Shown here: piece after piece, positions 4,242 through 48,027 of the stretch | How positions within the stretch are numbered: position 1 is the stretch's first letter | Layout of the letters: every line of letters starts with the position of its first letter | Assembly: GCF_963921235.1 (NCBI RefSeq) | Contig: NC_086108.1 | Coordinates: forward strand, 28,894,001-28,958,000 | DNA length: 64,000 nt | Reading direction: 5' to 3' | Origin: Mobula hypostoma | Taxonomy: Eukaryota | Program-made: the position numbers and the translations under genes | The notes under the pieces: generated by a model | Told to the model about the DNA's origin: nothing | Database searches by the model: none | Seen by the model: only the letters and a program-made list of their open reading frames with translations

Positions 4242-4281
4242 AGTCGACAGATGTTTCTGGCCGAGACCCTTCGTCAGGACT
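4242..4281 (-). ncRNA. Hammerhead motif variant with a 4-nt insertion in helix III
   Basis: Reverse complement is AGTCCTGACGAAGGGTCTCGGCCAGAAACATCTGTCGACT. Confidence 0.65.
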
Positions 4282-5912
4282 AACTGAAAGAAGAGATAGC
4301 AAGAGATTTGAAAGTGGGAGGGGGAGAGGGAGATCTGAAATGATAGGAGAAGACAGGAGGGGGAGGGATGGAGCTAAGAGCTGGGAAGTTGATTGGCAAA
4401 AGGGATACAAGGTTGGAAAAGGGAGAGGATCATGGGACAGGAGGCCCAAGGAGGGGAAAAAAAAGGGGGTAAGGGAGCCCAGAGGAAGATGGAGAGCAGG
4501 CAAGGAGTTATAGTGAGAGGGATAGAGGGAGAGAAGAGAGAGAGAGGAAAAAAGGGAAAAAATAAAGAATAGTAAATAAATAAATAACGGATGGGGTACG
4601 AGGGGGAGGAGGGGCATTAACATAAGTTAGAGAAGTCAATTTTCATGCCATCAGGTTGTTGGCTACCCAGACGGAATACAAGGTATTGTTCCTCCAACCT
4701 GAGTGTGGCTTCATCTTGACTACAGTAGAGGAGGCCGTGGATAGACATATCAGAATGGGAATGGGACGTGGAATTAAAATGTGTGGCCACTGGGAGATCC
4801 TGCTTTCTCTGGCGGACAGAGCGTAGGTGTTCAGCGAAATGGTCTCCCAGCCTGCATTGGGTCTCGCCAATATATACAAGTTAAATTGTGTGGCCACTGG
4901 GAGATCCTGCTTTCTCTGACTGACACAGCATAGGGCTCTCACCCGATCTTCCTGCCACCCCACTAGGGATAGGGTTCCCCTTGTCCTCACCCACCACCCC
5001 ACCAGCCTCCGGGTCCAAAATATAATACTCCGTAACTTCCGCCACCTCCAACGGGATCCTACCACCAAGCACATCTTTCCCTTCTCCCTTCTTTCTGCTT
5101 TCCGCAGGGATCACTCCCTACGCGCCTCCCTTGTCCATTCATCCCCCCTATCCCTTCCCACTGATCTCCCTCCTGGCACTTATCCTTGTAAACGGAACAA
5201 GGGCTACACCTGCCCTTACACTTCCTCCCTCACCACCATTCAGGGCCCCTGACAGTCCTTCCAGGTAAGGCGACACTTCTCCTGTGAGTTGGCTGGGGTG
5301 ATATACTGGGTCCGGTGCTCCTGGTGCGGCCTTCTATACATTGGCGAGACCCAACACAGACTGGGAGATCGTTTCGGTGAACACCTATGCTCTGTCCGCC
5401 AGAGAAAGCAGGATATCCCAATGGCCACACATTTTAATTCCACGTCCCATTCCCATTCCCATTCTGATATGTCTATCCACGGCCTCCTCTACTGTCAAGA
5501 TGAAGCCACACTCAGGTTGGAGGAACAACACCTTATATGCCGTCTGGGCAGCCTCCAACCTGATGGCATGAACATTGACTTCTCTAACTTCCGTTAATGC
5601 CCCTCCTCCCCTTCATACCCCATCCCTTTATTTATTTATTTATTTACTATTTCCCCCCCCCTTTTTTCCCCCCTCTCCCTCTGTCCCTCTCACTGTAACT
5701 CCTTGCCTGCTTTCCATCTTCCTCTGGGCTCCCCTCCCCCTTTCTTTCTCCCTGGGCCTCCTGTCCCATGATCCTCTCCCTTCCCCAGCCTCGTATCCCT
5801 TTTGCCAATCAACTTTCCAGCTCTTAGCTCCATCCCTCCCCCTCCTGTCTTCTCCTATCATTTCCAATCTTCCCCTCCCCTATCAAATCTCTTACTTTCT
5901 CTTCTTTCAGTT

Positions 5913-5948
5913 AGTCCTGACGAAGGGTCTCGGCCCGAAACGTCGACC
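5913..5948 (+). ncRNA. Minimal type-I hammerhead ribozyme motif in the Penelope pLTR
   Basis: AGTC-CTGACGA-A-GGGT(CTCG)GCCC-GAAA-C-GTC-GACC: hammerhead core CUGANGA and GAAA, a GUC triplet, helix II, a short helix I and a loopless palindromic (ACGU) helix III. Confidence 0.8.
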
Positions 5949-6319
5949 GTACCTCTTTCAATACGTGCTGCCTGGCCTGCGTTCACCAACAATTTGCGTG
6001 TGTTGCTTGGGTTTCCGGCATCTGCAGATTTCCTCATGTTTGCACCATTATTTACTAACTAGCTTAATGTCATGCTGCTCTGCCACTGTAAACAAATGTT
6101 TTTCCTAAATAAATTTTTATTCATATCACTCTTTAAATTTGATAATGTAAACATTACTGCTATGATATGGGGAAGAACAAGCAAATAAAGAGTCATGAAA
6201 TTTTTATCACTTAGTCATAAAGCTTGAACATTCATTTGCAAAGACCTTGGTTCAATTATATCAGACACACGATACAACTCATTACAAGAATATCTATTTC
6301 ATGCTTTATGACATTAACT

Positions 6320-8260
6320 GGAATATCTTTTGTGATGGGGATGACTGAGTTCATGGAAAGGGTCATGAGCTTCATCCGGAAGTGCATCAAGGACATTGTC
6401 CCCCCAAAATCAGTCAGGGTCTATACAAACCAGAAAACTCTGGATTAATAGTCCCGTGCATGTTGCACTTACCATGTGAGACAGAGCTTTCGCCGCTGGT
6501 AACCAACAGGAACTCAAGAAAAGCAGCTATGTTCTACGCAAAGAAATCTAGGCAGTGAGATGACAATACAGAGACAAGATTCAGACACAACTCTCCACCA
6601 GCAACACACACAGCTTATGCCAAGGTCTGCACACCATCACAGACTTCAAAGCTAAACACAGTAGTGCTGGCAACATCGCTGCCTCTCTCCCAGATGAGTC
6701 AAATCTTTTTTATGCTCGATTCGATGCTGCCAATGCTACCTGCACCTTGGTCATCTCAGAGGCTGAAGTACGCAGGTGTTTCCAATGAGTGAACAGCCAC
6801 AATGCTGTGGGACCGGACGACAACCCAGAGCGGGTACTCAGAGTGTGTGCAGCACAACTGGTGTGTTTGCAGACATCTCTAATCTCTCCCTCTCTCAATG
6901 TAGAGTGTCCTCCTGCTTCAAACATCCACCACTGTCCCTGTACCTAAAAAGACCACGGCAACATGCCTGAACGACTGGTGTCCTGTCACATTCACCTCAA
7001 TAATAAGCAAATGATTTGAGAGGCTGGTCAAGGACTACAACTGCAGCTTGCTATCATCCACACTGGACCCCCTACAACTCACCTACTGACACAACCGATG
7101 GCGCAATAGCCACAACTCTACACACCGTCCTTATACACCTGGAGAAGAAGGATGCTTCTGTGAGAATGCTGTTCTTGGACTACAGTTCAACATCCAACAC
7201 CACAATTCTCTCCAGGCTCGACAAGAAGCTCAGAGACCTGGGCCTTCACCCTGCCTTGTGCAGCTGGATCCTGGACTTCCTGTCAGATCACCGGCATGTG
7301 GCAAGAGTGGGCTCCCTCACCTCTTCCCCTCTGACCCTCAACACAGGAGACCCCCAGGGCCTCAAGCCTCCTCCTTTACTCTTTGTACTCCCATGACTGT
7401 GTCACCACCCACAGCTCCAATCTGCTTTAAATTTGCAGATGATACTACAGTGATTGGCCTTATCTCAAATAATAACGAGGCAGCCTACAGAGAAGAAGTC
7501 ATCACTTTGCCACAGTGGCGTCAAGAAAACAACCTCTCCCTCAATGTCACAAAAACAAAGGAGCTGGTTGTGGACTACAGGAGGAATGGAAACATCAAGA
7601 GATGTGGGGTTGAGAGGGTGAACAGCTTTAAGTTCCTTAGTATGCACATCACCGAGTATCTCACTTGATCTGTACATATCGGCTATGTGGTGAAAAAAGC
7701 ACATCACCCCTTTCACCTCAGATGGTTGAAGAAGTTTGGCATGAATCCCCAAATCCTAAGGACTTTCTACAGGGGCGCATTTGAGAGCATCCTGACTGGT
7801 TGTATCACTGCCTGGTATGGGAACTCTACTTCTCTCAATCGCAGGACTCTGCAGTGAGTGGTGCAGATAGACCAGCGCATCTGTGGATGTGAACTTCCCA
7901 CCAATCAAGAGATTTACAGTGACAGGTGCATAAAAACTGCACGAAAGATCATTGGGGACCCAAGTCACCCCAACCACAAACTGTTCCAGCTGCTACCATC
8001 CGGGAAACGGTACTGCAGCATTAAAGCCAGGACCAATAGGTTCCAGGACAGCTTCTTCCACCAGGCCATCAGACTGATTAATTCAGGCTAACACATGTAT
8101 TTCTCAGCTATATTGACTGTTCTGTTGTATATTTTACTATACATACTATTATTAAAAATTACTAAAATTTGCACATTGCACATTCAGATGGAGACATAAT
8201 GTAAAGACTTCACTCCTCACGTATGTAAGGATGTAAGAAATAAAGTCAATTCAAATTCAG
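6320..8260 (+). mobile_element. Rex1/Babar-type LINE, degenerate RT and 3' end
   Basis: VRMLFLDYSS, CSWILDFLSD, FADDTTVIGLISNNNEAAYREEV and LLPSGKRYCSIKARTNRFQDSFF occur in several frames; tail aataaagtcaattcaaattca. Confidence 0.85.
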
Positions 8261-10581: not shown

Positions 10582-12220
10582 CAGGTTTCCCCCGCCATCC
10601 GAAGGTAGAGCGTTCCTATGAAATGGTTCGTAAGCCGGAATGTCGTAAAGTGGAGAAGCAATTACCATTTATTAATATGGGAAAAATTTATGAGCGTTCA
10701 CAGACCCAAAAATAACCTACCAAATGATGCCAAATAACACACAAAACCTAAAATAACAGTAACATATAGTAAAAGCAGGAATGATATGATAAATACACAG
10801 CCAATACAAAGTAGAAATACTTTTCTACAATCATTGTCTGACTGTTCTCCATAGCGAAAATTTCACGCAAGCGCTCTTGGCAAAAACACGACGCAAGCGC
10901 TCTCAGCAAAAACACTCTCTCCAGTAACCTTTAAGCTATGAAGCTGCCAAATCATACCAAATAACATATAAAAATACACAGCCTATATAAAGTAGAAATG
11001 ATGTATATACAGTGTAGTATCACTTATGGGAATCGGGATCTCCAGGCAGCGAACCGATACTGATCCGCCAAGCATGCAGGGGTACAGCGGTCGCCGGGAC
11101 GCACCCAGCACATCTTTAAGAAAAAAGCCGAAACAAACAAGCTAATTAATTAGGTGCCGCCTGGCACGTAAATGTCAACCCAGATCAGAGGCAACGCAAT
11201 CGGCAATTGCCTCCAATCTGAGCCGACATTTACATGCCGGGCAGCACCCAATTAATTAGCTTGTTTATTTAGGCTTTTTTCTTAAAGACGTGCTGGGTGC
11301 CTCCCGGCTACCGCTGCATTCTCCACGAATCAGTATCTGTCCATGGCCCGGGGGTTGGGACCACTGGGGTGGTGGGACACGGGGGGTGTCATCTCATCGT
11401 CGATCAGGGCAGGCAGGTCATCTTCTTCTATGTCTGCCTGCCTCAATGGCGAAGGTCGAGGTTCGTCGTCTGCTGTGGCTGATGTGGAAGGCTTGAAAAA
11501 CGACAGTATGCTTGACTGCTTAGCCTTGCATATTTTTCTATCATACAGTTCTTTGTAAACCATCTTGCAAATATGCCCTAAACCGACGTACCTTTTCAAA
11601 ATTAAAGTCGTACTTTATCATTGCAGTGAAAATCTCACGCAGTTGCTTCACGCTCACTTCCTGGACGACTTCACTTTCGGTCCGTTCCCTACCGCCTTCG
11701 GTTTCGATTGTTATCCTTTCCTCTTCCAATTGCATCAGCTCTTCATCTATCAGTTCTTGGTCATGAGATGCCAAAACCTCTTCAACATCATCTTCATCAA
11801 CTTCCACAAGCCAAACTCACCTTGTCCTTACTTCGTTCACCACGATCAAAACGCTTAATTATGTCTAGTTTTACACTAAGTGTAACACCCTTACAAGCTC
11901 TTTTAGGCTTTTCTGATACCTTAGAACTCATCCTGCAAACGGATGCTCAAAATAAATCGACATAAAGCACAGATGCTCACAGGTACGTGTTTAAGCAATG
12001 TCGGCTAGAATGCAGTTCCGAGTCCGGGGGAGAACAGCTGCTCAGGGCGCGCGTTGTTTCTTTTCGCACGTTGCCTTTTATCGCGCGCTGCTTTCTTCGC
12101 ACGTTGCCTTTTTTCGTAACAGTGCAAACACCTTCTGTTAGCAAAAACAGGTAACTAATGTAGGTCTTTCATAACAGTGAGGTTTCGTAAAGCGAACATT
12201 CAAAAAGCGGGGGACACCTA
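10582..12220 (-). mobile_element. Tigger/pogo-type DNA transposon, internally deleted, with a transposase C-terminal remnant
   Basis: TIRs CAGGTTTCCCCCGC / GCGGGGGACACCTA flanked by TA. Remnants EVDEDDVEEVLASHDQELIDEELMQLEEE and KQSSILSFFK at 11330-11807. Confidence 0.85.
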
Positions 12221-14332: not shown

Positions 14333-16171
14333 CTGTGGATAAATGAATTAAACAGTCTTAAAATCTCCATGTTAAACATGTTCACTCTTTTCCCCCCACT
14401 GGAAAAGAATGTGGACATCACCGTCACTGCTCCCCATTGCCTTGGGCACTGTAAATGAAAATGCCACCTCAGAAGGCACAAAGTTCACCTGAAACAAAGA
14501 GAAGGCAAATAAGAAATGCTGACTCCCATGACCCAATGTCCAAGCCCAAGTCATTGGCAGCTAGTAATTATGAGCAGTGTGTTCCACCAAGATGCAACTC
14601 TCCAAATACAATGCAGAGATACAAGGCCATAAATGAAAGGAAAAACAATTGTGGAACAAGATAATAATTAAAGATAAGCATAAAAATTACAGATCATGAA
14701 TCCAGATACTTGATATTTACCTATGCACTGAGATGCAAATAGTCAAGAACTTTAGGGCATTTTATGAGAAACAACCAGCAAATGACAAGTAGAATTTGCT
14801 TTTGTGCCTAACCAACAAGGTAGTACAAGTAGCTTAGTGCTAACCAGCTCCTAACCATTAGGCAGATTTACTGGTAAATACAAGAATAAACGATATTATT
14901 ACTTTTATCCACTCCCAGTGCACTAGTGAGACAAATCCAGGCATCATGAATGGCGATTGCATATTTTCAACATTACACGCAAACCACACTGATATCAGTA
15001 ACATAATAGTAGAATAATAATAAAATTGCCAAGATTTATTTGAAAAACTGATTCAGATTATCTCCTATACAATTTCTCTAGGTTTTATTTCACAGTCAGC
15101 GTACAGAATGCTGGAGGGGTTGGGGTTAGGGTGTGGTGGATGGGAGGAAGGGAAGGAAGACTGGCAGACAGGAGGGAGCGGTGAAGAGGGGAATTGCACA
15201 CTGGTACTAATCCTAATCTCTCAACATTCCCAAACTCAATCTTGCTAACTGCAAGAGCTCATTTCCACTTAAGAGCTGAAAAATAATGAACATAATTAGT
15301 AACCAATTCACTTTCAATCCCAAGTGCAAGCCCAACTAACCGAGCACTAACCAGGACAATGTCCCCCTACCCCATGCAAACATCTCAGTACTTTACTTTC
15401 GTCAAATGGTAGAAATGGGATTATATCCACTCTTCATCTGACAATGTCATGATTTCTAAAAGTTTCAAAACAGCAGTTGAGATCTTACTAATGAGAAATG
15501 CAATCTCCCTCAAAATGTGAAATAGAAATGGAAAATGAAAAATTTGTTTTGAATATTTTTCCCAGTCATTATTTCTTTGGGAGTTTTTGGTACAACATCA
15601 TGGACTCTATTGGTCTATTTAAAGATCATCTCCAACAAGACAGCCAAATACAGTGGACATTGAAGCAGGTAAGACACTGGCTCCCCTTTCACAACTGTCT
15701 CACCACCTTTTATTATCTTGAGGAGACAAATCAGTTTAATATTCTCCACAACTAGATCTGTGCAACCCCTACAGTACTTGGCCACCAGCTGGAACCAGAA
15801 AACCTCAGTTTCTAGGTACTGAATCCACTACCCTAAACATGCATTCCTTCCACCATGATGAACAATGAAATCATCTTCTAAACGTATTGTTGTTCTTTAC
15901 ATCCCAGCTTCACCAACTGCATCTTCCCAACCATAATCACGGACAAGGGTTTTAAACTCATCTAAACTCCCCTCCAATGCCTAGATCCCAAGTAAAGGAA
16001 TAAACGATTTACCAAAATAACAACTTCAGAGGGAAACTCATGATGCAGCCGAGAGTTGGATATTTCACAGTGCAAAGTGTGTGTGGAAAGTAGCATTAAG
16101 ATACGAGACAACCATTTAGATGGGGAACAGTTATTATCAGAGAGCTGTATGTTTTTTTGAATCCCTTAATC

Positions 16172-16917
16172 CAGGGGTCCCCAATCTTTTTTGCACCGTA
16201 GACCAGTTTAATGTTGTCAATATTCTTGCGGACTGGCCGACCCGGGGGGGGGGGGGGAAGGCGGGGGGTATTCAAGTAGGGTTAAACTCCCCACGACATG
16301 TCTTTTACAGTTAGGGTTGCCAACTTTCTCACTCCCAAATAAGGGACAACAGTAGCAGTCAAATCCCGGGGACACTTTACCCCAGGAAAGACTACCATGG
16401 CCATGAAGCCTTGAGTGTGCATGTGATGTAAGCAGGCACATATGTGCTGATTTTTTTCCTCACCAATCGGTTTTGCCTTCATTTTCCCAACTACACTGTA
16501 CAGACATTATTTCTACTTTATATAGGCTGTGTATTTATCATATCATTCCTGCTTTTACTATATGTTAGTGTTATTTATTTTCAGTTTGTGTTATTTGGTA
16601 TGATTTGTTAGTTTATTTTTTTGGGTCACAGAACGCTCAAAAATTTTTCCCATATAAATTAATGGTAATTGCTTCTTTGCTTCACGCCATTTCGGCACAT
16701 AAGGTTTCGTATGAACGCTCTACCTTAGCGGGGAAAATACGGGACAAACCAATTTAGCCCAATATACGGGATGTCCCAGCAAATATGGGACAGTTGGCAA
16801 CCCTATGTTCAAGTTCAACAGTGCGTGACAGGGAATGAGGAAAAGTGCAGCTGAGTCATATCGTTTCCTCACGGCCCGGTAGCACATGCTTTGCGGTCTG
16901 GTGGTTGGGGACCGCTG
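16172..16917. mobile_element. Composite non-autonomous hAT element (Charlie-type TIRs) containing a TAGGG-TIR hAT element and a Tigger fragment
   Basis: Outer TIRs CAGGGGTCCCCAA / TTGGGGACCGCTG with TSD ccttaatc/ccttaatt. Inner element 16277-16805 TAGGGTT...AACCCTA with TSD tattcaag/tgttcaag. Confidence 0.85.
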
Positions 16918-18908: not shown

Positions 18909-20856
18909 ATAGATTAAGTATCAATATGAAGTTACAAAACATAACACTAGAGACAATTTACAGTAGCCAATTAACCTACCAACTTTGGCACCCAGAGGAA
19001 AGCCTATATAGCCACAGGGAGAATATGCAAACTTCACACAGCGAAGGTAATAATTGAGCCTCGGCTGCATGAGATACGAGGTTGTAGCTACACAAGTTGA
19101 ACCAATAGGCCATCTTTATAATAAAACAGAGAATATTTTAATTTATTAAGATAGCCTCAAAGACAGTCTGAACTTTATCTCTCTATTGATGCAACAACCA
19201 TTGACAATCAGACACCATCCAGCAAAGGAAAGCAGTGAATCACCATCCACTATTTACTGGGCCCAGCAATGCACGATTCCACTGAGAAACAAGCTAGGAC
19301 TCTGAATCAAGGATGAATTATATATTGGGGGGGGGGGGGAGAGTAAGAATCTTTTATTGTTGTTCTTCCCCAGGCCATACTAAGGTTCCCACACAGTCTG
19401 CAAACCAGAAATGCAGCCATGTATCAAGCTTCCTCATGGAAGAAGATGGCAGTAAAATCATACCACCAGCCTTCCAAAAGTGTGTTCGCATATATGTGAT
19501 GTACGCAAGCTAGCTGTTCAGAAGTTGGGAAGTACGTGTATGTTGATATTCACTATACTGGAAAAGTGAAGGGCTTGATCTGTGTTCTGATAGTTACTTC
19601 TCCCACCTAAACTGGTGTGATGTGAATCCCCTGCATTAGAATCAGAGTTCCCCCGGCTTTATCTTGCTGGTGCCCTCGACCATGGTACTCTCAAGTGTGG
19701 TAGGTGAGAAGCACATTAGCTTGAGAAGCTCATATTAGAGGGGAGAAATAAGAGAGGTCTTCTTGAGGAAAACCCCCCCCTGATGTCCCAGAGACACATT
19801 AGTTCCGGATCATAAAATAATGTACTTGCATGCATGTTCTTGGTCAACCTCAGTTACTAACACATGATAACCACTTGAGCATTATTGTGTGATGACTAGC
19901 AAAGTCTGTATCATATAATTTTAGCAAAAATCTTCACTGAAGCACATTTATTGTAGTCATAATAATTTGGATTTCCCAGTCTTAATACTAGATATCAGGA
20001 TCACTAAGGGAAAATAGGCTTTAAGAGTAGCCTCCAAATATTATTATATTACATTGATGGTAAATTATAAATAAGTGAATCTTTCTTTCAAAGATATTAC
20101 TAATGAAAATGCACGGGAAAACTGAGGCAAGTAAGGCGATATGTATGTAACCACTGCACAAGGATGCTGCTACAGTGCTTCAAATCTACCAGAATACATG
20201 TAGAGACTTTGCTTTTGCCCATTCAGGGGATGGATTTTGTACCAAACTGAAACAGAGATTCACTTGTATTTCTTCCAATCTAGTGTACTGCAATCTGTGT
20301 TCGCAATGTAGTCTCGTCTACACTGGAGAATCCAAACACAGATAGTGTGAATACTTAACAGAACTTGAACTCAGAATTCCCAGTTGCTCCCACTTCAATA
20401 TCCCATCTCACTCTGACGTATCAGTCCATCACTGCAATAACGAGGCCCCAGTGTAAGCTTCGGAAAGAGCGCCTCATCTTCTGTCTTGGGCAGCTTCTAT
20501 ACTCATGACTGAATTGTACAACTTTGGGTAGTTTGCTCTCACTGTTTGTGTCAGAACTGTCTATTTTTGATACAAGTCATCCACCTGTGGTATTTGCTCA
20601 GCTTCTCCCCTCTCCATCACCTCAGCCAGACTTGTTGGGCATGTTCCATAACCATGCATTTAGTCATTTTTAAACATCTTTCCATGTATTCTCATTTGCT
20701 GCTCTCTTCTCATAGCTGCTGCTTGATGTTCTCTCTCTAACTGCATCCACTGAACAAGTGGATGACCTCACAAGTTAATCCCCACTGCAGTCCTGTATCA
20801 ACCTATCAGATATACTCCTTGTCCAATCTGTGTCTTCTCCATCTCATCTATAATCA

Positions 20857-21044
20857 AGCAACACACATTAAGGTTGCTGGTGAACGCAGCAGGCCAGGCA
20901 GCATCTCTAGGAAGAGGTACAGTTGATGTTTTGGACCGAGACCCTTCCTCTTCCTAGAGATGCTGCCTGGCCTGCTGCGTTCACCAGCAACATTGATGTG
21001 CTTTGCTTGAATTCCCAGCATCTGCAGAATTCCTCGTGTTTACG
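20857..21044 (+). mobile_element. Penelope-derived 188-bp fold-back element
   Basis: Inverted arms of the pLTR 3' end; perfect 13-bp TSD tcatctataatca at 20844-56 and 21045-57. Confidence 0.85.
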
Positions 21045-21714
21045 TCATCTATAATCAGTTTGGTTCTTTCCCGGCTAAATCTTCAGTCTGAAATGATGAA
21101 GGTTCCTCACCACAGCCACCTACTCAACGATTGTAGCATTTTCAGGTTTTAATTCAGATCTGCAGCCTCTGCAGCTTTTTAAAAAGATTCATACGAAGTG
21201 CTGGCAGTGCGGATCACTTTCATGTTGGAGCACGGAATGAGAATCAAGCAATCCATACCTGCTCAGAACTGGTTAAGCTCCTAGGCCTTCACAGGTGACA
21301 CAGAGCAGATACTTGTTCCATCAGACTAGACAGGATCCACACTCAGGCCCTGGAAGGTAAAGGGACAATCTATTAACACTCATGATGGCATCCAATCCCC
21401 GTGCTGTCCAGCAACTTGATGTAACTCCTATTAAACATAAACATTCAATAACATGCAACCTGTGCCAACTGTCTGGATTTCCTTTGAACAAGCAACAATG
21501 CTAAAACAGCTTCCTGTATACTTTGTAATTAAGAGGAAACAAGGATTCCCCAAGCAGCCTTAGGAGTTATTCAGCAGTTTAGACCTAACCACATACTCGG
21601 ACGTTAGACACAATCACGTGAGTACTGTAAACATCTATCATTGTACCATGAAAATCATCATAGGAGGGTCAAAACTCTTTGGCAATGGGCAGGAGCATAT
21701 TCCAAATGGTCTGA

Positions 21715-25897: not shown

Positions 25898-26284
25898 TCT
25901 GACCATCCACTGCTGCTGATAACTTTATACTTCTATCAGGTCACTCTGCAGCCACCTTCACTCCAGGAAAAGCAAAACCAGGCTACCTAATGTATCCCCA
26001 GAACTAAAGAGACTGCCAATGCACTTACAATGCACTTAATGCTGTATTAAGTGCATTGGTGAGACCAAATTTGGGAGCAGTTCTTGCCACCTATCTACAG
26101 GAAAGGTATCAATAAGATTGAAAAAAATACAGAGAAAATTAACATGGATTTTGCTGGGACTTCAGAACCTGAGTTACAGGGAAGGTTAACAACAGGAATT
26201 CTGCAGATGCTGGAAATTCAAGCAACACACATCAATGTTGCTGGTGAACGCAGCAGGCCAGGCAGCATCTCTAGGAAGAGGTAC

Positions 26285-26320
26285 AGTCGACATTTCAGGC
26301 CTAGACCCTTCGTCAGGACT
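26285..26320 (-). ncRNA. Hammerhead motif with C->T in helix III
   Basis: Reverse complement is AGTCCTGACGAAGGGTCTAGGCCTGAAATGTCGACT. Confidence 0.65.
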
Positions 26321-26434
26321 AACTGAAGGGTCTCAGCCTGAAACGTCGACTGTACCTCTTCCGAGAGATACTGCCTGGCCTGCTTGGATCTCCCCCTCCC
26401 ACTTTCAAATCTCTTACTAACTCTTCCTTCAGTT

Positions 26435-26470
26435 AGTCCTGACGAAGGGTCTCGGCCTGAAACGTCGACT
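26435..26470 (+). ncRNA. Minimal type-I hammerhead ribozyme motif, intact core
   Basis: AGTC-CTGACGA-A-GGGT(CTCG)GCCT-GAAA-C-GTC-GACT; helix I is AGTC/GACT. Confidence 0.8.
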
Positions 26471-26716
26471 GTACCTCTTCCTAGAGATGCTGCCTGGCCT
26501 GCTGTGTTCACCAGCAACTTTGATGTGTGTTGCTTATAGGGAAGGTTGAATAGGCTAGGATTTCCTTCTCTGGAGCATAGGAAAATGAGTGGACATTTGA
26601 TAGAGATACGCAAAATTCTGAGTGATATAGATAGGGCAAATGCAAACAGGATTTTTCCATTAAGGTTTGGTAAAACTAGAGCAAGAGGCCTTAGGTTAAG
26701 TGTGAAAGCTGAAAAA

Positions 26717-27397
26717 GGAGGAGAAGATGGCGGCGTAACGGCAGTGCGTGTGGCCTTTCCGGTGATGACTATCTGTTATCTGTCGACTGTGCACAATTCT
26801 GATTTGATGGAGACGGACGTGAGAGTACGGAGGAACATCTGGAAAACTACAGAAATGCCCGTTTCACTGCCGCTGCTACTGTGTGGTAACCGGAATCTCT
26901 GGAGCAGAAGGCCCCGAAATCCTCGGCTTTGCTTGCTTCAGCGGCCGGGGCGAGGTCAAAGGCGCTCGGCAGAGGATGGCGCTCGGGAGGCTGTATCAGA
27001 AGGGTTGGTCGGCGGCTCGAAGTTTTCGGACGGATGGACTCAAAGTGTCGGCTGTGGTCGGCTGCTTCCAAGGCATCGGCAAGTTGACGGTGCCTGGAGG
27101 TTTATGACAGGGAGTTTCCCCCTTTCTGCCGCCTGCAATCGGGGACTCAGGAGTCGATCGACTCAGGGACTTTTAAGACTTTTATTTTTACCATGCCCAT
27201 GGTTTGTTCTTCATCAAATTATGGTATTGTCTTGCACTGCTGTAACTATATGTTATAATTATGTGGTTCTGTCAGTGTTAGTCTTTGGTTTGTCCTGTTT
27301 TCTGTGATATCACTCCGGAGAAACATTGTATCATTTCTTAATGCATGTATGCATTTCTAAATGACAATAAAAGAGGACTGAGTGTTTTCATAATCTA
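26717..27397 (+). mobile_element. Non-autonomous LINE-derived element (CpG-rich head starting AAGATGGCGGC, LINE-like 3' tail)
   Basis: Cleanly interrupts the CR1 fragment; tail tgcatttctaaatgacaataaa. Confidence 0.6.
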
Positions 27398-29250: not shown

Positions 29251-29669
29251 TCAGTTTTCTAAACCACAGTGGAGAGACTGAAAGATGAGTGTCACTTGGA
29301 CTAGGGATGTGTCAGGAATTATTTAAAGTTTATAACTATAACTCAAATGCAGAGGAAAGAGACTCCACACTTGTAAGTTTAATTTTGAGTGCCAAGTTTG
29401 TTTGGCTGTAATTAAAGACGTACATGGCATTAAAAATTTCAATTACAAGCTTGCAAGTACATATCACTCAAGTATAGACATTTTACACCCTTCCATCTGT
29501 TTTGATGCATGACATTCAGTGAAATACAGTTATAACGAAGGAAAAACAGATGAACTTGGATAACAGGTTTTCAATTACTCCACGTAACTATTCGCTTAGA
29601 GACATTGGAATCTCTTCCATTTTTGACCTCAAGTAGGAAAAGCAAGTCCATTCAATTAAATGAGAGAGA

Positions 29670-31065
29670 CAAATAAACTCTTCTCGGGCTTCCAGCTGGG
29701 CACAGGTATCAATTTTAACCGATGTTTCATTGATCAATACTTGCCATCTTCATCAGGAATGATGCCTGGGCATGTCTAGTCCAGTGGTATACATCTACCC
29801 CCGTCATCTGTCCCTGATTGGTTAGTCCTCATACAATCAGGTTTCCACTGTCCCACCTTGTTGATAATTGAATTCCAGTACTTTCTTAGAGTGAGACAAG
29901 TGCCTTTGTTAAAAGTCTTATCGTCTAGTTTTATTTCAATGGCTTCCTTCACCAGGCAGTCCCAAAAGCCATTGGTTCAGCACAGTAGTTTGGTGCCAAA
30001 GGTCAGTCCTATGGCCATTGTGAATACAATGTTCTGCTAGACAACTTCTCCTGGAAACCCAAACAGATACACATCCTGTGCTCCGTGATGCAGGTTTCCA
30101 CCACGTGCCCTGTCTGGCCAATATAGACTGCTCTGCATTCACAGAGAATCCTGTAAACGCCAGCTACCCTGAGTCGCAGGTCATCTTTGACCCGCATAAG
30201 CTGCAATTTGAGCTTTCTTATGGGTTTGTGGATGGTATTAATCCAGTACCTCTTCAGGATCCTGGTGATTCTCCCAGAAACCATGGAAATATAGGGAAGA
30301 CGGGCAGTAGCAACGGGTTCCTCCTCATTGTTAGGTTTCCTGGTTTTTCCGCTGGTCCTTGTAAGGGCCCCAATTGATTTCGTTCACCTTGTAGCCACTC
30401 TGTAGGAACGTTGTGCATAATCGTCTCATTTCTTCGTGGAGACCATCCAACTACTGAAATAATTTTGCACAGTTAATCAAAGTAGAAAGAACCACTCTAC
30501 CTGGGGAGGTGAGATGGTGATTGTCATTGCTAAGGAACAAGTCCATGTGAGTGGGCTTCCAATAGACGCCATGGCCGAGGCTGCCATCCGATTTCCATCA
30601 GACTACAATGACAAGGAATGGGAGGCAACCATTCTTCTCCATCTCCATTGTAATTGAATGTTTGCATGTATGCTGTTCAGGTGGTTGTGGAACAGCTAGG
30701 AGTGTCTGAAGGCTGAAGAAGCATTTGAGACGTAACAGTGATGAACTCAGTTCAGTGCCCTCTCCTCAAAGTCCTCCATGTAGAAATTAGCAATAGCCGG
30801 TGACAAGAATTTTAACAAAGTCGAAGGTTTCACTATAAGTACTGGAATTCAATTATAAACAAGATGGGACAGCAGAATCCTGATTAGATGAGGACTAACA
30901 AATCAGGAGGGATGGACAACGGGGGTAGATATAGATATGCCTAGGTATCGTCTCTAGGCAGAGTTAGTCATCGAAACTTCGGTTAAAATTGGTATCTGTA
31001 CCTGGCTGGAAACCCAAGAAGAGTTTATTTGTCACGTATGCCAGAGAAGCTCAAGATCCTTTTAC
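29670..31065 (-). mobile_element. Penelope-like element, second family (Poseidon-like GIY-YIG plus RT C-terminus) with an inverted pLTR arm
   Basis: GVYRILCECRAVYIGQTG in ORF 30009..30284. 29668-29900 is inverted relative to 30815-31033. Degenerate TSD aaatgagagaga/aaattagggaga. Decayed hammerhead CTGATGA...GAAACATC at 29719-29757 (-). Confidence 0.85.
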
Positions 31066-38616: not shown

Positions 38617-40134
38617 CAGTTGCAATAAAGAGTTTGTGAACCTTTTGCAATTACCTGGTTTTCTGCATTAATTATTCATAAAATGTGGTCTGATCTTCAT
38701 CTAAGTTACAATCGACAAGCACAATCTGCCTGAACTAGTAACACACAAACAATTCTACTTTTCATGTCTTTATTGAACACATTGTTTAATCATTCACAGT
38801 ACAGACGGGAAATCTTGCATTTAACAATTGGCAGAACCTCCTTTAGCAGCAATAACCTCCACCAAACATTTTCTCTAGCTGCTGATCGGACTTGTATAAT
38901 GGCGAGGATAAATTTTAGACTATTTCAGACTCCATACAAAACCATTCCAGTTAATCAATATTTCTGGGATACTTTGCAGGAACGGCCATCTTCAGGTCAT
39001 GCCACAGCATCTCAATTGGGTTAAGTTCTGGACTCTGACTTGGCAACTCCAAAGCACGAATTTTCTTCCTTCTAAAACCATTCTGTTGTTGATTCATTCA
39101 GGTGTTTCAGAACACTGTCATGTTGCATCATCCAACTTTTATCAAGCTTCAGGTGACAGACCACTGCCCTGACATTCTCCTTTAAAATGTCTTGATAGAA
39201 TTTTTAATTCATTGTTCCCTCAGCGATTGCAAGCTGATCTGGCCCTGAAGCACCAAACCATGATGCTCCTTCCACCATGCTTCACAACTGTGATGAGGTG
39301 TTAGTGTGCAGTGCCCTTTTTCCTCCAAACACAGTGGTGTGCATTTCTGCCAAAAAGTTCAACTCTTGTTTCATCTGTCCATAGAACATTGACCATTGAA
39401 CATTGTATTGTGAAACATCCAGGTGGCCTTTTGCAAACTCGGGACATGCACCGTTCTACAGTGGACACATGAACAGAGACTTTAGCAAGTTCTAGAGGTT
39501 TCTGCAGGTCTTCTGCTGTTACCCTTGTGTTCTTTTTCACCTCCTTCAGCATTGCATGTTGTACTCTTGGTGTGATCTTCGCAGGATGTCCTCTCCTAAG
39601 GAGAGTAACAACAGTACTGAATTTCCTCCATTTGTAGACTATTTCTCTTATAGTGGACTAATGAACATTTAGGTCTTTAGAAATGCTTTTGTCACATTTC
39701 CAGCTTCATGCATCTCTACAATTCTTCTTCTAAGGTCCTCTGAAAGCTGTTTTGATCAAGGTATGGTGCACATAAACAGATCTTTCTTGAGAAGAGCAGG
39801 CTCCATCAGTAACCTGACTTTGTGATTTTTTAATATAGGGCAGGTCACCTCTACAACCCACAAATCCAATGTCATCTCATTGATTGGTACACCTGGCTCC
39901 AAATAGCCTTTGTGTAGAAGGCATTACTTCAGAGGTTCACATACTTTTGAACCTAGACTGTGATTATTTAAATAGTGTACTCAGTAATGACGAGAAGTAC
40001 AGTTCTTTGTCTGTTATTAATTTAGGCAGATTGTGTGTGTCTATTATTGTGACTTAGATGATCAGACATTTTATGAGTAATTACTTCAGAAAACCAGGTA
40101 ATCGCAAAGGGTTCACAAACCCTTCTTGAAACTG
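38617..40134 (-). mobile_element. Tc1-family DNA transposon with long TIRs (about 190 bp) and a decayed transposase
   Basis: TA|CAGTTGCAA...TTGAAACTG|TA; VLWTDETRVELFG...VWRKKG in 39301..39552. Confidence 0.9.
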
Positions 40135-41386: not shown

Positions 41387-41490
41387 ATTTAGTCCTGACG
41401 AAGGGTCTCAGCCTGAAACGTCGACTGCACCTCTTCCTAGAGATGCTGCCTGGCCTGCTGCGTTCACCAGCAACTTTTATGTGTGTTGCT
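41387..41490 (+). mobile_element. Solo Penelope pLTR arm of about 100 bp beginning at an intact hammerhead motif (41391-41426)
   Basis: AGTCCTGACGAAGGGTCTCAGCCTGAAACGTCGACT; possible TSD taattcttta/taaatcttta. Confidence 0.8.
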
Positions 41491-42577
41491 TAAATCTTTA
41501 GCCTCTACTATTTGAGAAGTCTGCTTCTTCAACCTGATACGTGATGTGGTATTGACGGGTTAAATCCCTCAGCAATTTTAAGGATTTAATAGGGCATGGT
41601 AACAAGCATGATTCTATAGTTCTTTCATCAGTGCACAGCTGAAGTTTTGAAAATATTCTGATTTTATATTTGAAAAGCCCCTATTCAGGCTGTAAATAGC
41701 AAAAGAAACCAAGTACTATCTTGTGATTTTAATCATGGTATTTTGAAGGGGGATGCACATTCTTAGTGTTATGAAGCTTGATGCCTTCAAGATTATTTAA
41801 CACTTGCCTTATCAAGGAACGAAAAGGATTTCAGGACAACTATCCAGCACTGGAGTATTCATCCAAGAGTAATCATACTCCAGCAGGGAGGCACTGCATA
41901 GACACAAGAATTAATACTTCCTCATGAATAGATGCTTCTATACCAAATTGTTACAGATTGAAAATAGACTGAGCTTTTTAACCTGGTCACTACTTAATGA
42001 AAGTAAAGTCTGAGGACAGTGAAGCAAAATAGAGATTTGGGAAAGATTTACATCGTGGTTTGGTCAAGGTCAGAGAGGGTGGGTGAAACAGTGGCTGTTT
42101 CGCTGTTGTTGCTTGGACTGTTCTGTTTCGTTGTGCTCTGCGCTGTTCTACCAAGCATTGTATGCTTTGTTGGCTCCAGAATGTGTGGTGACACTTGCCG
42201 GCTGCTCCCAACACACCCCTAGCAGTGCATTCTAGGCACCCACCACGGTTTAAAAAAACCTTCCTCTCTCACCTTAAATGCATGCTCTCTGGTATTAGAC
42301 ATTTCACCTCTGGGAAAAAGATACCACCCATCTACTCTATGTCTCAAAATTTTATCAGTTCATGATTCAGGGATCGATGGATATGGGTTTAAAATTTTGG
42401 GTAAATGAAGATAAACTTTCTGCGGAAAACAGCAGTTGATCTGGAACTTATTATCTGCAGGAATGATGGAAATAGAATCAATTTGCCCAAAGAAGAAACA
42501 GGGACCTGAGGGAGAATAACTTGTGGAGCCATTGGGGGTGGGGGGGGGGAGGAAGAGATGGACGAATATTCTTATAA

Positions 42578-43605: not shown

Positions 43606-44979
43606 GCCTGTGAGTTTGACGTCAGTGGTGGGTAAATTGATGGAAAGTATTCTTAGAGATGGTATATATAATTATCTGGATAGACAGGGTCTGATTAGGA
43701 ACAGTCAACATGGATTTGTGCGTGGAAGGTCATGTTTGACAAATCTTATCGAATTTTTTGAAGAGGTTACTAGGAAAGTTGCGAGTGTAAAGCGGTGGAT
43801 GTTGTCTGCATGGACTTCAGTAAGGCCTTTGACAAGGTTCCACATGGAAGGTTAATTAGGAAGGTTCAATTGTTAGGTATTAATATTGAAGTAGTAAAAT
43901 GGATTCAGCAGTGGCTGGATGGGAGACGCCAGAGAGCAGTGGTGGATAACTGTTTGTCAGATTGGAGGCCAGTGACTAGTGGTGTGCCTCAGGGATCTGT
44001 ACTGGGTCCAATGTTGTTTGTCAAATACATTAATGATCTGGATGATGGGGTGGTAAATTGGATTTATAGGTATGCAGATGATACTAAGATAGGTGGCGTT
44101 GTGGATAATGATGTGGGTTTTCAAAGCTCGCAGAAGTTTAGGCCAGTTAGAAGAGTGGGCTGAAAGATGGCAGATGGAGTTTAATGCTGATAAATGTGAG
44201 GTGCTACGTTTTGGTAGGACTAATCAAAATAGGACATGCATGGTAAATGGTAGGGCATTGAAGAATGCAGTAGAACAGAGGGATCTAGGAATAATGGTGC
44301 ATAGTTCCCTGAAGGTGGAATCTCATGTGGATAGGGTGGTGAAGAAAGCTTTTGGTATGCTGGCCTTTATTAATCAGAGCATTGAGTATTGGAGTTGGGA
44401 TGTAATGTTAAAATTGTACAAGGCATTGGCAAGGCCAAATCTGGAGTATTGTGTACAGTTCTGGTCACCGAATTATAGGAAAGATGTCAACAAAATAGAG
44501 AGATTACAGAGAAGATTTACTAGAATGTTACCTGGATTTCATCACCTAAGTTACAGAGAAAGGTTGAACAAGTTGGGTCTTTATTCTATGGAGCGTAGAA
44601 GGTTGAGGGGGGACTTGATAGAGGGATTTAAAATTATGAGCGGGATACATAGAGTTGACGTGGATAGGGTTTTTCCATTGAGAGTAGGGGAGATTCAAAC
44701 AAGAGGACATGAGTTGAGAGATAGGGGGCAAAAGTTTAGGGGTAATATGAGGGGGAACTTCTTTACTCAGAGAGTGGTAGCTGTGTGGAACGAGCTTCCA
44801 GCAGAAGTGGTAGAGGCAGGTTCGATATTGTCATTTAAAGTAAAGTTGGATAGCTATATGGACAGGAAAGGAATGAAGGGTTATGGGCTGAGTGCAGGTC
44901 GGTGGGACTAGGTGAGAGTAAGCGTTCGGCATGGACTAAAAGGGCCGAGATGTTCTGTTTCTGTTATATGGTTATATGG
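43606..44979 (+). mobile_element. Young 5'-truncated CR1 LINE (RT to 3' end), one frameshift near 44130
   Basis: ORFs 43610..43855, 43795..44163 and 44093..44911 contain QHGF, DFSKAFDKVPH, GVPQGSVLGP, YADDTK and LEYCVQFWSP; (ttatatgg)n tail. A second frame change lies near 43790. Confidence 0.92.
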
Positions 44980-47868
44980 GTACTTTGATAATAAATTTTC
45001 TTTGAACTTTGAAACTTGAGATTCATCTTCTCGCAGGAAACCACAAAACAAAGAAATGCAATAGAATCCATGAAAAACCACACACAAAAACCAACAAACA
45101 TTGTATGTGCAAAAGAAGACAAATCACACAACAGAAAAAGGTAAACAAATAACACATTGAACATGAGCTGGAGCGTCCCTGAAAGTGAGTCACAGCTACA
45201 GTAGTCAGTTCGGCACTGAAGCACAAGGCCCAATGGCTGCAGGGCAACAACTGGCGACACAGGACCCATGATTCCTACACTCCCCCACGCGCCCCCCCCA
45301 ATGGTAGTATGGTCGTAGCAGTAAGAGCGGGAAATGGGTCAAACGCAGGCAGACACCACTGAACAATGGTTCGTTTTCTGCTTTCAGGCCCTTTAATCTG
45401 GTGTGAAGTCCACCCCAGCAATGACCACTCCTCATCTTCAAGGTGCTGCACCTAAATTCCCGAAGTCAAGCCAAATCCTTCAGATTATAAAATCGCTGGT
45501 TCGTTAGACAGTTCAGAAGAATATTTAGTAGGTCATCTAGTAGTTGTGTGAACTGCCCACAAAACGCTGTACTGTATATCACGAGCGACATCTTGCATGC
45601 CACAGGACTGCTCCATGCAAATTGTATCATTTAGGCACACAAATTCATGGCCTTTAATTGTCCCAGCTCAGCAGGATGCATTTGCTTAAAATCATCAGCC
45701 AACATCAATAAATGTCCATTTCGTCCACAGATCAATGAAAAAAATTTCACTGTTGATAATCAGAATTCATATTAACAAACTGACCATCACCCAAATCTTT
45801 TAAAATAGAGCCTGAGGTCATATTTATGCTTTTCAATTACTGCTTACAAATGTGGCACAAATGGGATCAACAATTTAAAGGAGGTGAAACGATACTTACC
45901 TATTTTTCCAATAGGTGACTATGTAAAGTCTACTTTTCTGATACTGCCTGTCCCATATTCTAAGCATTGTGTAAGCTGAAAATTCGCAATGGTAAATGTT
46001 AAAATACCAAAAGTAAACATCCATGTTTGTGTCAATATTGTTAAAAATACTCAAAACTGCATGTAGTCTAAACACTTTTTCCCTCCAAGGACAATATTGG
46101 ATAATATATTTATCTCATGTAATCATGAAACACAGAAAGGCTATTCAACCCACTGAGCCACACCAGCGCTAATTAGTCCAACTAAGAATTTTCCTTCCAA
46201 GTATCCACATTTTTTCCCCTGAAAGTAGTTACTGACGTCACTCCTACAGCCTGCTACTGCAATTAAAAACCAACTTGTTTCCTCACTGGTAATTATGCTG
46301 ATTATATTATAATTCCAAAGACAACTGTTCTACTGCTGAGAACAGTTTCACCTTACTTCTTGAAAAAACTTTGAACACATCTGTTAAATACATTTGCTCT
46401 CCTTTCTCTACTCTCTCCACATAAAAGTAGTTTCTCACTCAAGATAGTTCCAGTGAGTAAGCCTTCCAAATCCTCAACATCCCTCCAAAAATATGATGAG
46501 GTCAGCACCAACACTCCCTCTAATTTTTTTTTACAGCTGTGCAGACTAACTATTGCTCTGAGCAGGAATATTTTTTTTTAAAAACATGGCCTGAAAACTG
46601 CACGGCACATTATATAAAAGAAAATTCTAGCTGTGCGGCAACAAAGGCTATGTGCGCGGGTGCATTTCAGTTACAGTGCGGCCACACACCCACGCAGCTT
46701 AGAGTGAACAGTAGTCAGCACCCAAACCTAACCAGTGATTTACAGATTGATTAATACAGCTTTCTGCTTTTGTACTCTACCAGTTTATTAAGCCAAGTCA
46801 GTAAGATGTATTTTGTTTAGGAAAAAAAGCACTTTACAGACTTGTATTAATACTTAAAAATATCTGTTATCTATTCACCAGGTTTCACTATTGCACTGAA
46901 TTTAAGTTGTGACATGCATGCATTTCCTTCTGGGAATAAAGGATAGTGATAATAAGGGAAAGTGGAATAAGTAAACTTGTGCAATTGTATTTAGCTCTAA
47001 CCACCCTGAAATCCCTGATGGAGGACACGTCTTTTCAAGTACAACTCTGATCCCAGTCTTGACAACCTGAAGTTTTGGAAAGGGGAACTAAAACCGCAAC
47101 AAGCCCCAACTGGAATATCCTGATAACAAGTTGAGTGCAGTAAAAGAAATGCTTAAATAAAACACTGATCTATATTTTTGATCTAAGCACTATGATACTA
47201 TCTTCCACACCTTATAGCCTATGTTAACATCCTCTGTAAGTCAATAACACTCAATAACAAGGGTTCAAACACAATGGCCTACTGGTGCAGGTAGGGTGTG
47301 CAGCCACATTCCAGAAAGGAGGTAAGGTTGTTAAAGGACTCACAGGCATTAAAAACCTGCACCCTGAGTGAGCTTTTCAACCTTCCTGGCCTGCTCTTCA
47401 CCCAAATCTATTATAGGAATGGGAAAAGTAAACACTCACTTACACAGCAGTGTTCATTATCTCAAAATGCCCTTAAGCCCTTCAACAATCAATGAGTTGT
47501 TTTTACTTTGCAGTCACTGTTGTGATATAGGGATCATTACAATTCACTTTTCCACCATTTCAAAGGTCTCAACTCGAGGGCCAATGAAGCAACTTATAGT
47601 GTTCCCTCAACATTAGAAGGTAATTCAGCACCTTAAACCTCGTCCAACATTTAAACAATAATAGTTGATATGGCTCTCAACTCTGCACCCTTGCCTATGT
47701 TCACAGGCTACCACAAAACACCTCAAAGACGTTTCCTCTCTTTCAAGAGCAATTATGGGAAACTCTGTTGGGAACGACAGAGGCTTTGGGAAGCTTGCAT
47801 TAGAGTTTCATTAGAATAGTTCCAGGGATGTTGTGAGACTGCAGAAATTGGAACGTCTCTTTGAAAAG

Positions 47869-48027
47869 CAACACACATCAGAGTTGCTGGTGAAGGACTG
47901 ACGAAGGGTCTTGGCCTGAAACGTCGACTGTACCTCTTCCTAGAGATGCTGCCTGGCCTGCTGCATTCACCAGCAACTTTGATGTGTGTTGCTTGAATTT
48001 CCAGCATCTGCAGAATTCCTGCCGTTT
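47869..48027 (+). mobile_element. Penelope-derived fold-back element; hammerhead core at 47898-47929 lacks its helix I 5' strand
   Basis: Perfect 14-bp TSD gtctctttgaaaag at 47855-68 and 48028-41. Confidence 0.85.

Follow-up and report, generated by a model that had tools for sequence, protein, structure and literature searches.

Hammerhead motifs in the window

The window, the whole stretch of 64,000 nucleotides that we analysed, contains seven hammerhead motif stretches reported in the initial annotation, all of which read as given there, together with partial copies absent from it.

5913–5948 (+): minimal type-I hammerhead, complete core; G10.1-C11.1; predicted cut after 5944
26435–26470 (+): minimal hammerhead, complete core; 4-bp helix I; G-U at 10.1-11.1; predicted cut after 26466
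41391–41426 (+): minimal hammerhead, complete core; one loop II change; predicted cut after 41422
4242–4281 (−): hammerhead variant; A at 11.1; 4-nt insert in helix III
26285–26320 (−): hammerhead variant; U15.2 through CpG decay of the helix III palindrome
47898–47929 (+): hammerhead core lacking the helix I 5′ strand, removed by an inversion junction
29719–29757 (−): decayed hammerhead motif of a second (Poseidon-like) family
20921–20947 (−): partial copy
26324–26352 (+): partial copy
61554–61586 (+): partial copy
61529–61552 (−): partial copy

The core pattern, CTGANGANGN{4,20}YGAAANNTH, was composed after the motif had been seen, and its elements (CUGANGA and GAAA boxes, and a UH cleavage site) are found in six of the seven copies, that at 4242 being the exception. 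The pattern matches 6 times in the window, compared with a mean of 0.04 and a largest count of 1 in 100 shuffles; the six matches are not independent, because they are copies of two repeat families. C17 is located at 5944, 26466, 41422 and 47925. Helix I comprises 3–4 bp (3 bp and a terminal A-C mismatch in the 5913 copy), helix II comprises 4 bp, and one extra base precedes the 10.1-11.1 closing pair. Of the 8 aligned copies, 2 have G-C at this pair and 5, among them those at 26435 and 41391, have G-U, so the young subfamily departs from G10.1-C11.1. Positions 15.2-16.2 form a palindrome without loop III, which reads ACGU in the copies at 5913, 26435, 41391 and 47898. The helix III insert of the 4242 copy is likely a tandem duplication with CpG decay.

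The 36-base motif corresponds to the minimal hammerhead that has already been described at the ends of Penelope-like elements (PLEs). Two Penelope-like families carry these motifs in their terminal repeats, and the description of the motifs as minimal type-I hammerheads whose helix III is a loopless palindrome (ACGU) holds. The Rfam search that had been proposed as a check did not return a hammerhead family at E ≤ 10, either among the 15 matches in the window or in the 161-base stretch 26380–26540, where the 1 match is to another family. A 51-bit Rfam match to mir-627 at 20874–20989 was rejected, as it corresponds to the hairpin of insertion B (below) and the family cut-off is 86.

Elements that carry the motifs

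Six of the motifs sit in the terminal repeat of a Neptune-type PLE, and the seventh lies in an insertion of a second family.

4935–5597 (+): C-terminal coding fragment of the Neptune-type PLE; linker Zn-finger-like motif, then GIY-YIG with an internal CxxC
29668–31062: second, Poseidon-like family; two arms in opposite orientation

The Neptune-type coding fragment is interrupted by a stop at 5250–5252 and is present on both arms of insertion A in a tblastn search; a hammerhead motif follows about 320 bases downstream of the GIY-YIG stop codon. Pfam recognizes GIY-YIG with an E value of 0.00024, just under the curated cut-off, and 10 of 61 candidates are homologues, the best two, named as ray proteins, having 85% and 82% identity. 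A CX2-5CxxC linker before the endonuclease is a clade criterion common to Neptune and Nematis, as described in PMC8557442. P0001–P0006 have the linker intact, while the window copy carries a mutation at its second cysteine (CKRNKGYTC, vs CKRNKCYTC in P0001). No RT core of this family is found within the 64-kb window, and the Neptune label rests on the linker and endonuclease. The family is very large in the source genome: in one DNA run, 152,235 contigs align to the 1.1-kb element end, a figure that counts contigs and not copies.

In the second family, the arm 29668–30800 (−) carries a decayed coding sequence that extends from RT to GIY-YIG without a linker Zn finger, while the arm 30802–31062 (+) has about 30 extra bases at its end. 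The decayed frames show the expected order, RT then GIY-YIG, with motifs that we take to be those of Penelope/Poseidon type; Pfam and homologue searches of these frames gave no match, and no target duplication is detectable around the insertion. These motifs, together with the missing linker (a criterion of PMC8557442), would place the seventh hammerhead motif (29719) in a Poseidon-like family.

The initial annotation had also assigned the cluster to a host gene locus, but no host exon was identified by splice-site scan, Pfam or homologue searches. Among 15 and 131 frames submitted to Pfam (the 131 being nearly all plus-strand and about 48 aa or longer, with a minority of the minus-strand frames among the 243 listed), only transposon domains are credible. 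The best exon candidate, 15566–15668, was rejected: its two hits are repetitive proteins, and the one compared gave no alignment. A homologue search with a second candidate, 50793–50870, found nothing. Beyond the window, the motif has 0 matches in metagenome contigs, a protein search of public contigs returned 29 distant loci, 1 of them with a hammerhead-like motif, and viral contigs yielded no further copies.

Anatomy of the insertions

The motif copies belong to short insertions, listed here with arm ends numbered from the predicted cut.

4179–6043: insertion A, head-to-head pair; short-ended arm 4179–4934 (−), long-tailed arm 4935–6043 (+); 13-bp target duplication 4166–4178 and 6044–6056
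20857–21044: insertion B; short arm (−) from −22, long arm (+) from about +9; 13-bp target duplication 20844–20856 and 21045–21057
26188–26537: insertion C; long arm 26188–26327 (−), then (+) a piece −23 to +37 and a short-ended piece −81 to +69; exact 10-bp target duplication 26178–26187 and 26538–26547
41387–41491 (+): insertion D, single short-ended copy; start at −33; possible 10-bp duplication with one mismatch
47869–48027: insertion E; 26–29-nt short arm (−) from +41, long arm (+) from −27; 14-bp target duplication 47855–47868 and 48028–48041
61429–61653: insertion F, outside the span of the initial annotation; long arm (−) from −19, short arm (+) from −28; exact 10-bp target duplication 61419–61428 and 61654–61663
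57057–57250: older relic G; apparent short arm (−) and long arm (+)
59915–60085: older relic H; apparent short arm (−) and long arm (+); weak alignments

The two relics are likewise absent from the initial annotation, and no target duplication is detectable around either. The five young pairs (A, B, C, E and F) are flanked by exact duplications of 13, 13, 10, 14 and 10 bp, respectively; among random flank pairs, 2 of 4986 have a duplication reaching 10. The copies fall into two 3′ end classes, at about +69 (short) or about +103 (long), and every young pair (5/5) combines one short and one long 3′ end inside one target duplication. Each of the five also combines an inverted 5′-truncated partner and a one-sided 30–40-bp tail with its target duplication.

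Unlike the 3′ ends, which are fixed, the 5′ ends range from −81 to +41. Specifically, 7 of 10 truncation points lie in −40 to −19, at the 5′ edge of the ribozyme (post hoc p 4e-6, the interval having been picked after seeing the points, which were placed by hand and, like the five pairs, come from one window). None of the ten is at the predicted cut and eight are upstream of it. These truncation points fit uncut or re-ligated templates, not templates starting at the cut; they do not bear out the earlier proposal that the copied RNAs had been processed by the ribozymes.

Each arm carries bases missing from its partner in four cases, B, C, F and the second family, so one arm is no plain copy of the other there. 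Private changes per arm number 7:5, 2:2, 3:1, 0:1 and 1:9 in the five pairs, and only F is skewed (9 vs 1, p 0.02), a significance that is lost after five tests. In addition, one variant is common to B+ and C1, against C3. The private changes and the shared variant are no more than suggestive of two templates.

These observations bear on the formation of head-to-head pairs by fold-back (self-priming) of one cDNA, with the tail marking endonuclease resolution of the hairpin, which we consider quite unlikely. Fold-back is proposed in PMC3846280, which argues for self-priming on an antisense template, and in PMC8557442, whose account attributes the tail to endonuclease resolution; the near-palindromic junction of C favours it, and A and E are compatible with fold-back of the long arm. 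The private bases in both arms of B, C, F and the second family argue against it, as does the uneven distribution of private changes in F, one of five tests.

Short copies as probable integration products

The initial annotation had further suggested that short elements consisting of little more than ribozyme and tail may behave as retrozyme-type units, a suggestion that the absence of arrays, the varying 5′ ends, the two fixed 3′ ends and the duplications around head-to-head pairs do not support. A retrozyme-type non-autonomous element, whose cleaved unit RNA circularises and is inserted by the PLE enzyme, would account for the many copies that hold little beyond ribozyme and tail, and a circular template would likewise be read across the cut; moreover, animal retrozymes are kin to PLE terminal repeats and are reported in the one chondrichthyan sampled (preprint 10.64898/2026.07.22.740005). 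Published retrozymes, as presented in PMC7229834, are tandem arrays with canonical ribozymes, whereas none of the 17 tandem-repeat rows in the window contains the motif, and no head-to-tail array with two complete ribozymes occurs there. In the sole head-to-tail pair (in C, at a spacing of 114 nt), the core of the first copy is broken, and the longest young arm runs on into ordinary element 3′ region (94% identity to arm A− over 143 nt). Together with the variable 5′ ends of the short copies, these features make a retrozyme origin very improbable. The short copies are likely ordinary leftovers of integration, not a separate ribozyme-driven element.

Folding and decay of the ribozyme

Predicted folding holds the ribozyme core in an inactive hairpin. 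The best fold of the 40-mer has an energy of −11.3 to −11.7 kcal/mol and pairs core GACG with CGUC at a probability of 0.98, while a hammerhead-compatible fold reaches −6.8 to −7.3 kcal/mol. For the three complete copies, the double-hammerhead dimer is predicted at −11.1 to −13.5 kcal/mol, and the inactive cofold, at −26.6 to −31.5 kcal/mol, lies far below it. We do not accept this gap as proof of inactivity; nearest-neighbour folding omits the tertiary contacts of the core and undervalues any hammerhead. When 45 nt upstream and 40 nt downstream are included, A+ and C3 fold the upstream tract onto the core.

Copy-to-copy differences are mostly CpG decay, and the copies, few and closely similar, show no covariation. 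Among the young arms, 8 of 10 within-motif changes are at CpG sites, and 0 of 8 helix pairs are changed on both sides in 8 close copies, in an alignment where A− is misaligned at its insert. The copies in the genome are probably inert and in decay.

A proposed two-nick, two-start model of integration

Taken together, we hold it probable that the motifs are PLE terminal-repeat hammerheads, and that the short copies are 5′-truncated, mostly head-to-head insertions produced by two-nick, two-start copying of likely uncut RNA. In this model, the element enzyme would cut both DNA strands about 10–14 bases apart, and the uncut element RNA would be copied from two internal start sites, one per cut. 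By analogy with an Anolis element studied in vitro, the +69 and +103 ends may represent the two sites where reverse transcription begins, and the 34-base interval that separates them the ‘tail’. The bases private to each arm in B, C and F suggest that both arms were copied from RNA. Copying ran past the cut site, and at seven of the ten truncation points it had stopped between −19 and −38. The ribozyme is predicted to rest in the inactive fold and to cut slowly, as a dimer or with the help of protein.

The stops could mark run-off at the 5′ end of the transcript, after which the two cDNA ends would anneal, a reading to which we give close to an even chance. A pyrimidine tract with a CAG lies at this boundary.

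5888–5917 (+): pyrimidine tract and CAG directly preceding the ribozyme; putative splice-acceptor-like sequence

The tract overlaps an initiator-like YYANWYY, the A of which is the first base of helix I; the match is weak, because YYANWYY occurs 1.1 times per 100 bases in the window. The same tract is found at about 26415–26439 (+), in copy C3.

Copying stalled by RNA structure or bound protein, followed by annealing of self-complementary cDNA, with the transcript starting elsewhere, is a credible if not a probable explanation of the 5′ pile-up. The B and C junctions join core GAAGG to complementary pyrimidine runs, the predicted folding of the upstream tract onto the core in A+ and C3 would provide a structure, and a protein assists the ribozyme in the Anolis element, as described in PMC11167929. 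The predicted hairpin is short, though, and the 5′ ends of D, E and F lack clear microhomology.

It appears unlikely that the 5′ context of the ribozyme is instead set by splicing, with the CAG as a functional 3′ splice site for an intron in the terminal repeat, of the kind found in Drosophila virilis Penelope. By a crude splice-site score, the AG site at 5911 ranks 8th of 8673 in the window and those of the other two full copies rank 43rd and 180th, but the tract belongs to an extended pyrimidine-rich stretch, where a high score is expected. A branch-point-like TACTAAC motif upstream in C3, the start of copy D at the first base after the AG, and the intron end of D. virilis Penelope, which maps to helix I in the account of PMC4209133, agree with splicing. 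Against it, no donor above the score threshold is found in 5324–5910, and copies starting near the AG have no upstream exon in common. In contigs of 4 of 24 runs (region 4940–6080), which show no RNA ends, 0 of the 15 joints listed, out of a set with 579 others, land on 5911; this speaks neither for splicing nor against it. A GT..AG skip, 5187–5500, was observed in one contig of one run.

A more specific form of the two-nick, two-start model, which we regard as speculative, would have an enzyme dimer hold two RNAs, possibly paired through helix III, and prime the near and far starts at the two nicks, with run-off at the first base of the ribozyme. If such a two-ended machine operates, the hammerhead would be an RNA pairing and boundary device more than a cutter, and the numerous minute pairs in ray genomes would directly record the reaction.

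Comparison with known systems

The element is of a known kind in a new host. The ribozyme finding itself is ordinary, as the motif class and its PLE location were published in 2014. What is useful is the record of insertions, since a family this large allows the two-start, two-nick model and the question of two templates to be addressed by counting.

Like the metazoan PLE minimal hammerheads described by Cervera and De la Pena in 2014 (PMC4209133), the present motifs have a type-I layout, a helix I of 4 bp, one additional base separating A9 from 10.1, a G at position 10.1, a palindromic loopless helix III and a terminal-repeat location, and they are mostly single motifs on truncated copies, as is also described for fish Neptune and Poseidon, whose minimal hammerheads are weak even as dimers (PMC4209133). 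They differ in the G-U at 10.1-11.1 of the youngest subfamily, in a helix II of 4 bp compared with 7–8 bp in Schistosoma, and in the host, which is a ray-like cartilaginous fish; the text consulted of that paper does not mention this group.

Animal non-LTR retrozymes (PMC7229834; preprint 10.64898/2026.07.22.740005) are, in their published descriptions, also short and non-coding, with a type-I hammerhead and kinship to PLE terminal repeats. They form tandem arrays, in which successive units carry complete ribozymes, and make circular RNA, features that are not seen here.

The origin of inverted copies with a one-ended tail is called unresolved in PMC8557442, and a tail at one of two inverted repeats is described there and in PMC3846280. 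Accounts of Pen2a_Av of Adineta vaga and D. virilis Penelope (PMC3846280, PMC8557442, PMC2377424) share with our insertions an inverted 5′-truncated copy, a one-ended 30–40-bp tail, a target duplication of about 10 bp and a terminal-repeat promoter, which in our insertions is putative. Unlike in those elements, most insertions here are 100–350 bp long, the duplications are 10–14 bp, and the 5′ ends cluster at the 5′ edge of the ribozyme.

A mechanistic parallel is with Poseidon PAc of Anolis carolinensis, for which Frangieh et al. 2024 (PMC11167929) describe two internal starts, cutting and extension of both strands, a protein-assisted ribozyme and uncut RNA as the main substrate. In PAc, as in the reading that we favour, the tail is delimited by two internal RT starts, both strands are cut, insertion does not require the ribozyme, and there are no read ends at the cut. 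PAc is a Poseidon element, whereas our main family is of Neptune type, and head-to-head pairs with one start site per arm, the arrangement suggested by all five young pairs of the window, are not discussed in the excerpted PAc text (PMC11167929).

Penelope-like elements carrying the hammerhead motifs

All seven minimal hammerhead motifs claimed by the initial annotation can be read in the window, at 5913-5948(+), 26435-26470(+), 41391-41426(+), 4242-4281(-), 26285-26320(-), 47898-47929(+) and 29719-29757(-), of which the first three are complete copies. Their assignment to Penelope-like elements (PLEs) is correct, as insertion A (4179-6043) contains a GIY-YIG domain with homologues. Specifically, the Pfam match has an E-value of 0.00024 and scores 21.8 bits where the cut-off is 22.6, and 10 of 61 candidates are homologues, the best being named Mobula and Hypanus proteins of 85% and 82% identity, which makes a ray the likely host. 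The ribozyme is located about 320 bases downstream of the GIY-YIG stop codon. The linker of the coding fragment contains a cysteine motif, which PMC8557442 gives as a criterion for Neptune or Nematis type; by this motif we class the element as one of these two. In one DNA run, 152,235 of 29.7 million contigs align at 80% to 4940-6080, and the family is very large in this genome.

A second family (family 2, 29668-31062), which we take to be Poseidon-like from its motifs, has decayed RT-to-GIY-YIG frames without the linker cysteine motif, and neither Pfam nor a homologue search gave a match for it. Older Neptune-type GIY-YIG fragments lie at 20244-20501(+) and 58974-59300(+), with 36% and 55-60% identity to ray proteins, respectively. 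LINE and DNA-transposon fragments are abundant in the remainder of the window, and no host exon was identified in it.

Other features of the window
53452-56954, minus strand: long LINE copy, presumably CR1/L2-like, in which Pfam finds a GDSL/SGNH esterase-like piece of ORF1 and an endonuclease-RT frame of 890 aa
34744-38200, 43700-44900 and elsewhere: fragments related to the long LINE
10602-11316 and 16490-16726: inverted-repeat elements, the first of them containing a 232-base hairpin (11085-11316)
11800-11946, minus strand: CENP-B-type transposase fragment adjoining the inverted-repeat elements
39304-39657, minus strand, and 51031-51201, plus strand: Tc1-type transposase fragments
15566-15668, 47566-47619 and 50792-50870, plus strand: exon-like stretches lying outside repeats, with splice sites that score well; homologue searches for the first and third found none, and a Pfam scan of the second gave no match

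Layout and predicted activity of the ribozymes

The 5′ half of the motif comprises AGUC (the 5′ strand of helix I), the CUGACGA core, a single extra A and a 4-bp helix II with a 4-nt loop, while the 3′ half comprises GAAA, the palindrome ACGU, C17 and GACU (the 3′ strand of helix I). We number from C17, the base preceding the predicted cut (5944, 26466, 41422 and 47925). The core pattern, written after the motif had been seen and matching repeat copies, occurs six times in the window versus 0.04 expected from 100 shuffles. A hammerhead family of Rfam is absent from the 15 matches at E ≤ 10 across the window, and from the single match on a 161-base stretch. At 5948, the only motif position among the 40 rows listed, most aligned DNA contigs carry the letter that regains the fourth helix I pair.

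As 40-mers, the three complete copies have a best fold of −11.3 to −11.7 kcal/mol, in which core G5-G8 pairs with C15.2-C17 (probability 0.98); the hammerhead-compatible fold has −6.8 to −7.3. When the fold takes in 45 nt of upstream and 40 nt of downstream sequence, helices I and II have probabilities of 0.09 or less in A+ (the plus arm of insertion A, 4935-6043) and C3 (the short-ended plus piece of insertion C carrying motif 26435-26470), and the predicted energy of a double-hammerhead dimer is far above that of the inactive cofold. The predicted activity is poor, not zero, because folding models omit tertiary contacts. Among in-motif changes in young arms, 8 of 10 fall at CpG sites (two junction bases dropped), and no helix pair is altered on both sides in 8 copies. 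By sequence, the motif differences look like neutral decay following insertion.

A metagenome contig (L013) encodes a related RT and, on the other strand at about 1590-1620(-), has a minimal hammerhead whose helix II is 7 bp long and whose helix III is the palindrome ATAT.

Short copies and retrozymes

Short copies had been proposed to behave as retrozyme-type units. Retrozymes are described, in PMC7229834 and preprint 10.64898/2026.07.22.740005, as tandem arrays in which successive units each carry a complete ribozyme, and the latter reports them in the single chondrichthyan sampled. None of the 17 tandem-repeat rows of the window contains a motif, which speaks against the proposal here; in the sole head-to-tail motif pair, the first core is broken. 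Other parts of the genome may still contain arrays.

Anatomy of the insertions

The young insertions A, B, C, E and F are head-to-head pairs flanked by exact target duplications.

Insertions and target duplications
4179-6043: A, pair, 13 bp
20857-21044: B, pair, 13 bp
26188-26537: C, pair, 10 bp
41387-41491, plus strand: D, single short-ended copy, at best 10 bp with one mismatch
47869-48027: E, pair, 14 bp
61429-61653: F, pair, 10 bp
57057-57250 and 59915-60085: relics G and H, long-short layout apparent, as in family 2, no duplication detectable in the three

Duplications of at least 10 bp occur in 2 of 4986 random flank pairs. In all five young pairs, the 3′ end of one arm lies at about +65 to +69 (short) and that of its partner at about +101 to +105 (long). 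Self-priming or endonuclease resolution have been offered to explain head-to-head pairs with one-sided tails (PMC3846280 and PMC8557442). Each arm of B, C, F and family 2 holds private bases with no counterpart in its partner, so plain fold-back of one cDNA is insufficient for these four; A and E do not discriminate. As a gauge of whether the two arms of a pair derive from one RNA or two, private changes are lopsided only in F (1 versus 9, p 0.02, one of five tests).

Two of the 12 young arm pieces extend past −250. The other 10 stop at −19 to −38 (7 pieces) or at +9, +41 and −81; none stops at the cut, as would be the case with uncut or re-ligated templates; that the ribozymes processed the copied template RNAs stays a suggestion. 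The clustering has p 4e-6, with ends placed by hand, the interval picked post hoc and two of the 10 pieces belonging to the same arm of C.

At the centre of A, a 54-base piece (4881-4934) repeats 4774-4827, and therefore synthesis of one arm jumped back; the junction of the two plus pieces in C is a jump of the same kind. A GC-rich repeat-like block (26700-27390) interrupts the LINE fragment that received C. A contig in runs X9 and X21 reaches the short 3′ end of the element (5980) and resumes at 5535, a head-to-tail junction away from the ribozyme cut.

A proposed model for integration

The Anolis Poseidon enzyme is described in PMC11167929 as cutting both strands and extending each; reverse transcription has two internal starts that bound the tail, and the template is mainly uncut RNA, the ribozyme cutting only with protein. 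By analogy, two nicks 10-14 bases apart would each prime one cDNA, one starting from +69 and the other from +103. The cDNAs would halt, their 3′ ends would join, and repair would yield a head-to-head pair with the tail at one end. We found no statement of this one-start-per-arm model in the literature searched, in which most subscription papers are missing.

For the stop at the ribozyme 5′ edge, run-off at the transcript start is our first, tentative choice. The terminal repeat is where PLEs have their promoters (PMC2377424, PMC6765202), and the A of an initiator-like YYANWYY is the first base of helix I, though this pattern recurs 1.1 times per 100 bases of the window. Stalling followed by annealing of self-complementary stretches is a close second and quite possible. 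Third and unlikely is a functional splice acceptor at this position; the candidate AG at 5911 ranks 8 of 8673 by a crude score built from base frequencies. In all four runs, contigs have loose ends at 5913, where other pyrimidine-rich sequence joins the first base of helix I in many contigs, suggesting other subfamilies in which helix I's own AG comes after the tract, with low agreement among contigs (0.37-0.46).

Comparison with known elements

A literature search by title for Neptune elements in cartilaginous fish gave nothing relevant; published shark or ray motifs may exist. What the window still offers is a set of insertions that can be counted to study how PLEs integrate, a mechanism not yet solved. 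Fish Neptune and Poseidon elements carry minimal hammerheads; most of these are lone motifs in truncated copies, and even their dimers are poorly active (PMC4209133). The insertions described here are like the PLEs in PMC3846280 and PMC8557442, where an inverted partner, a tail at one end and a target duplication have already been described.
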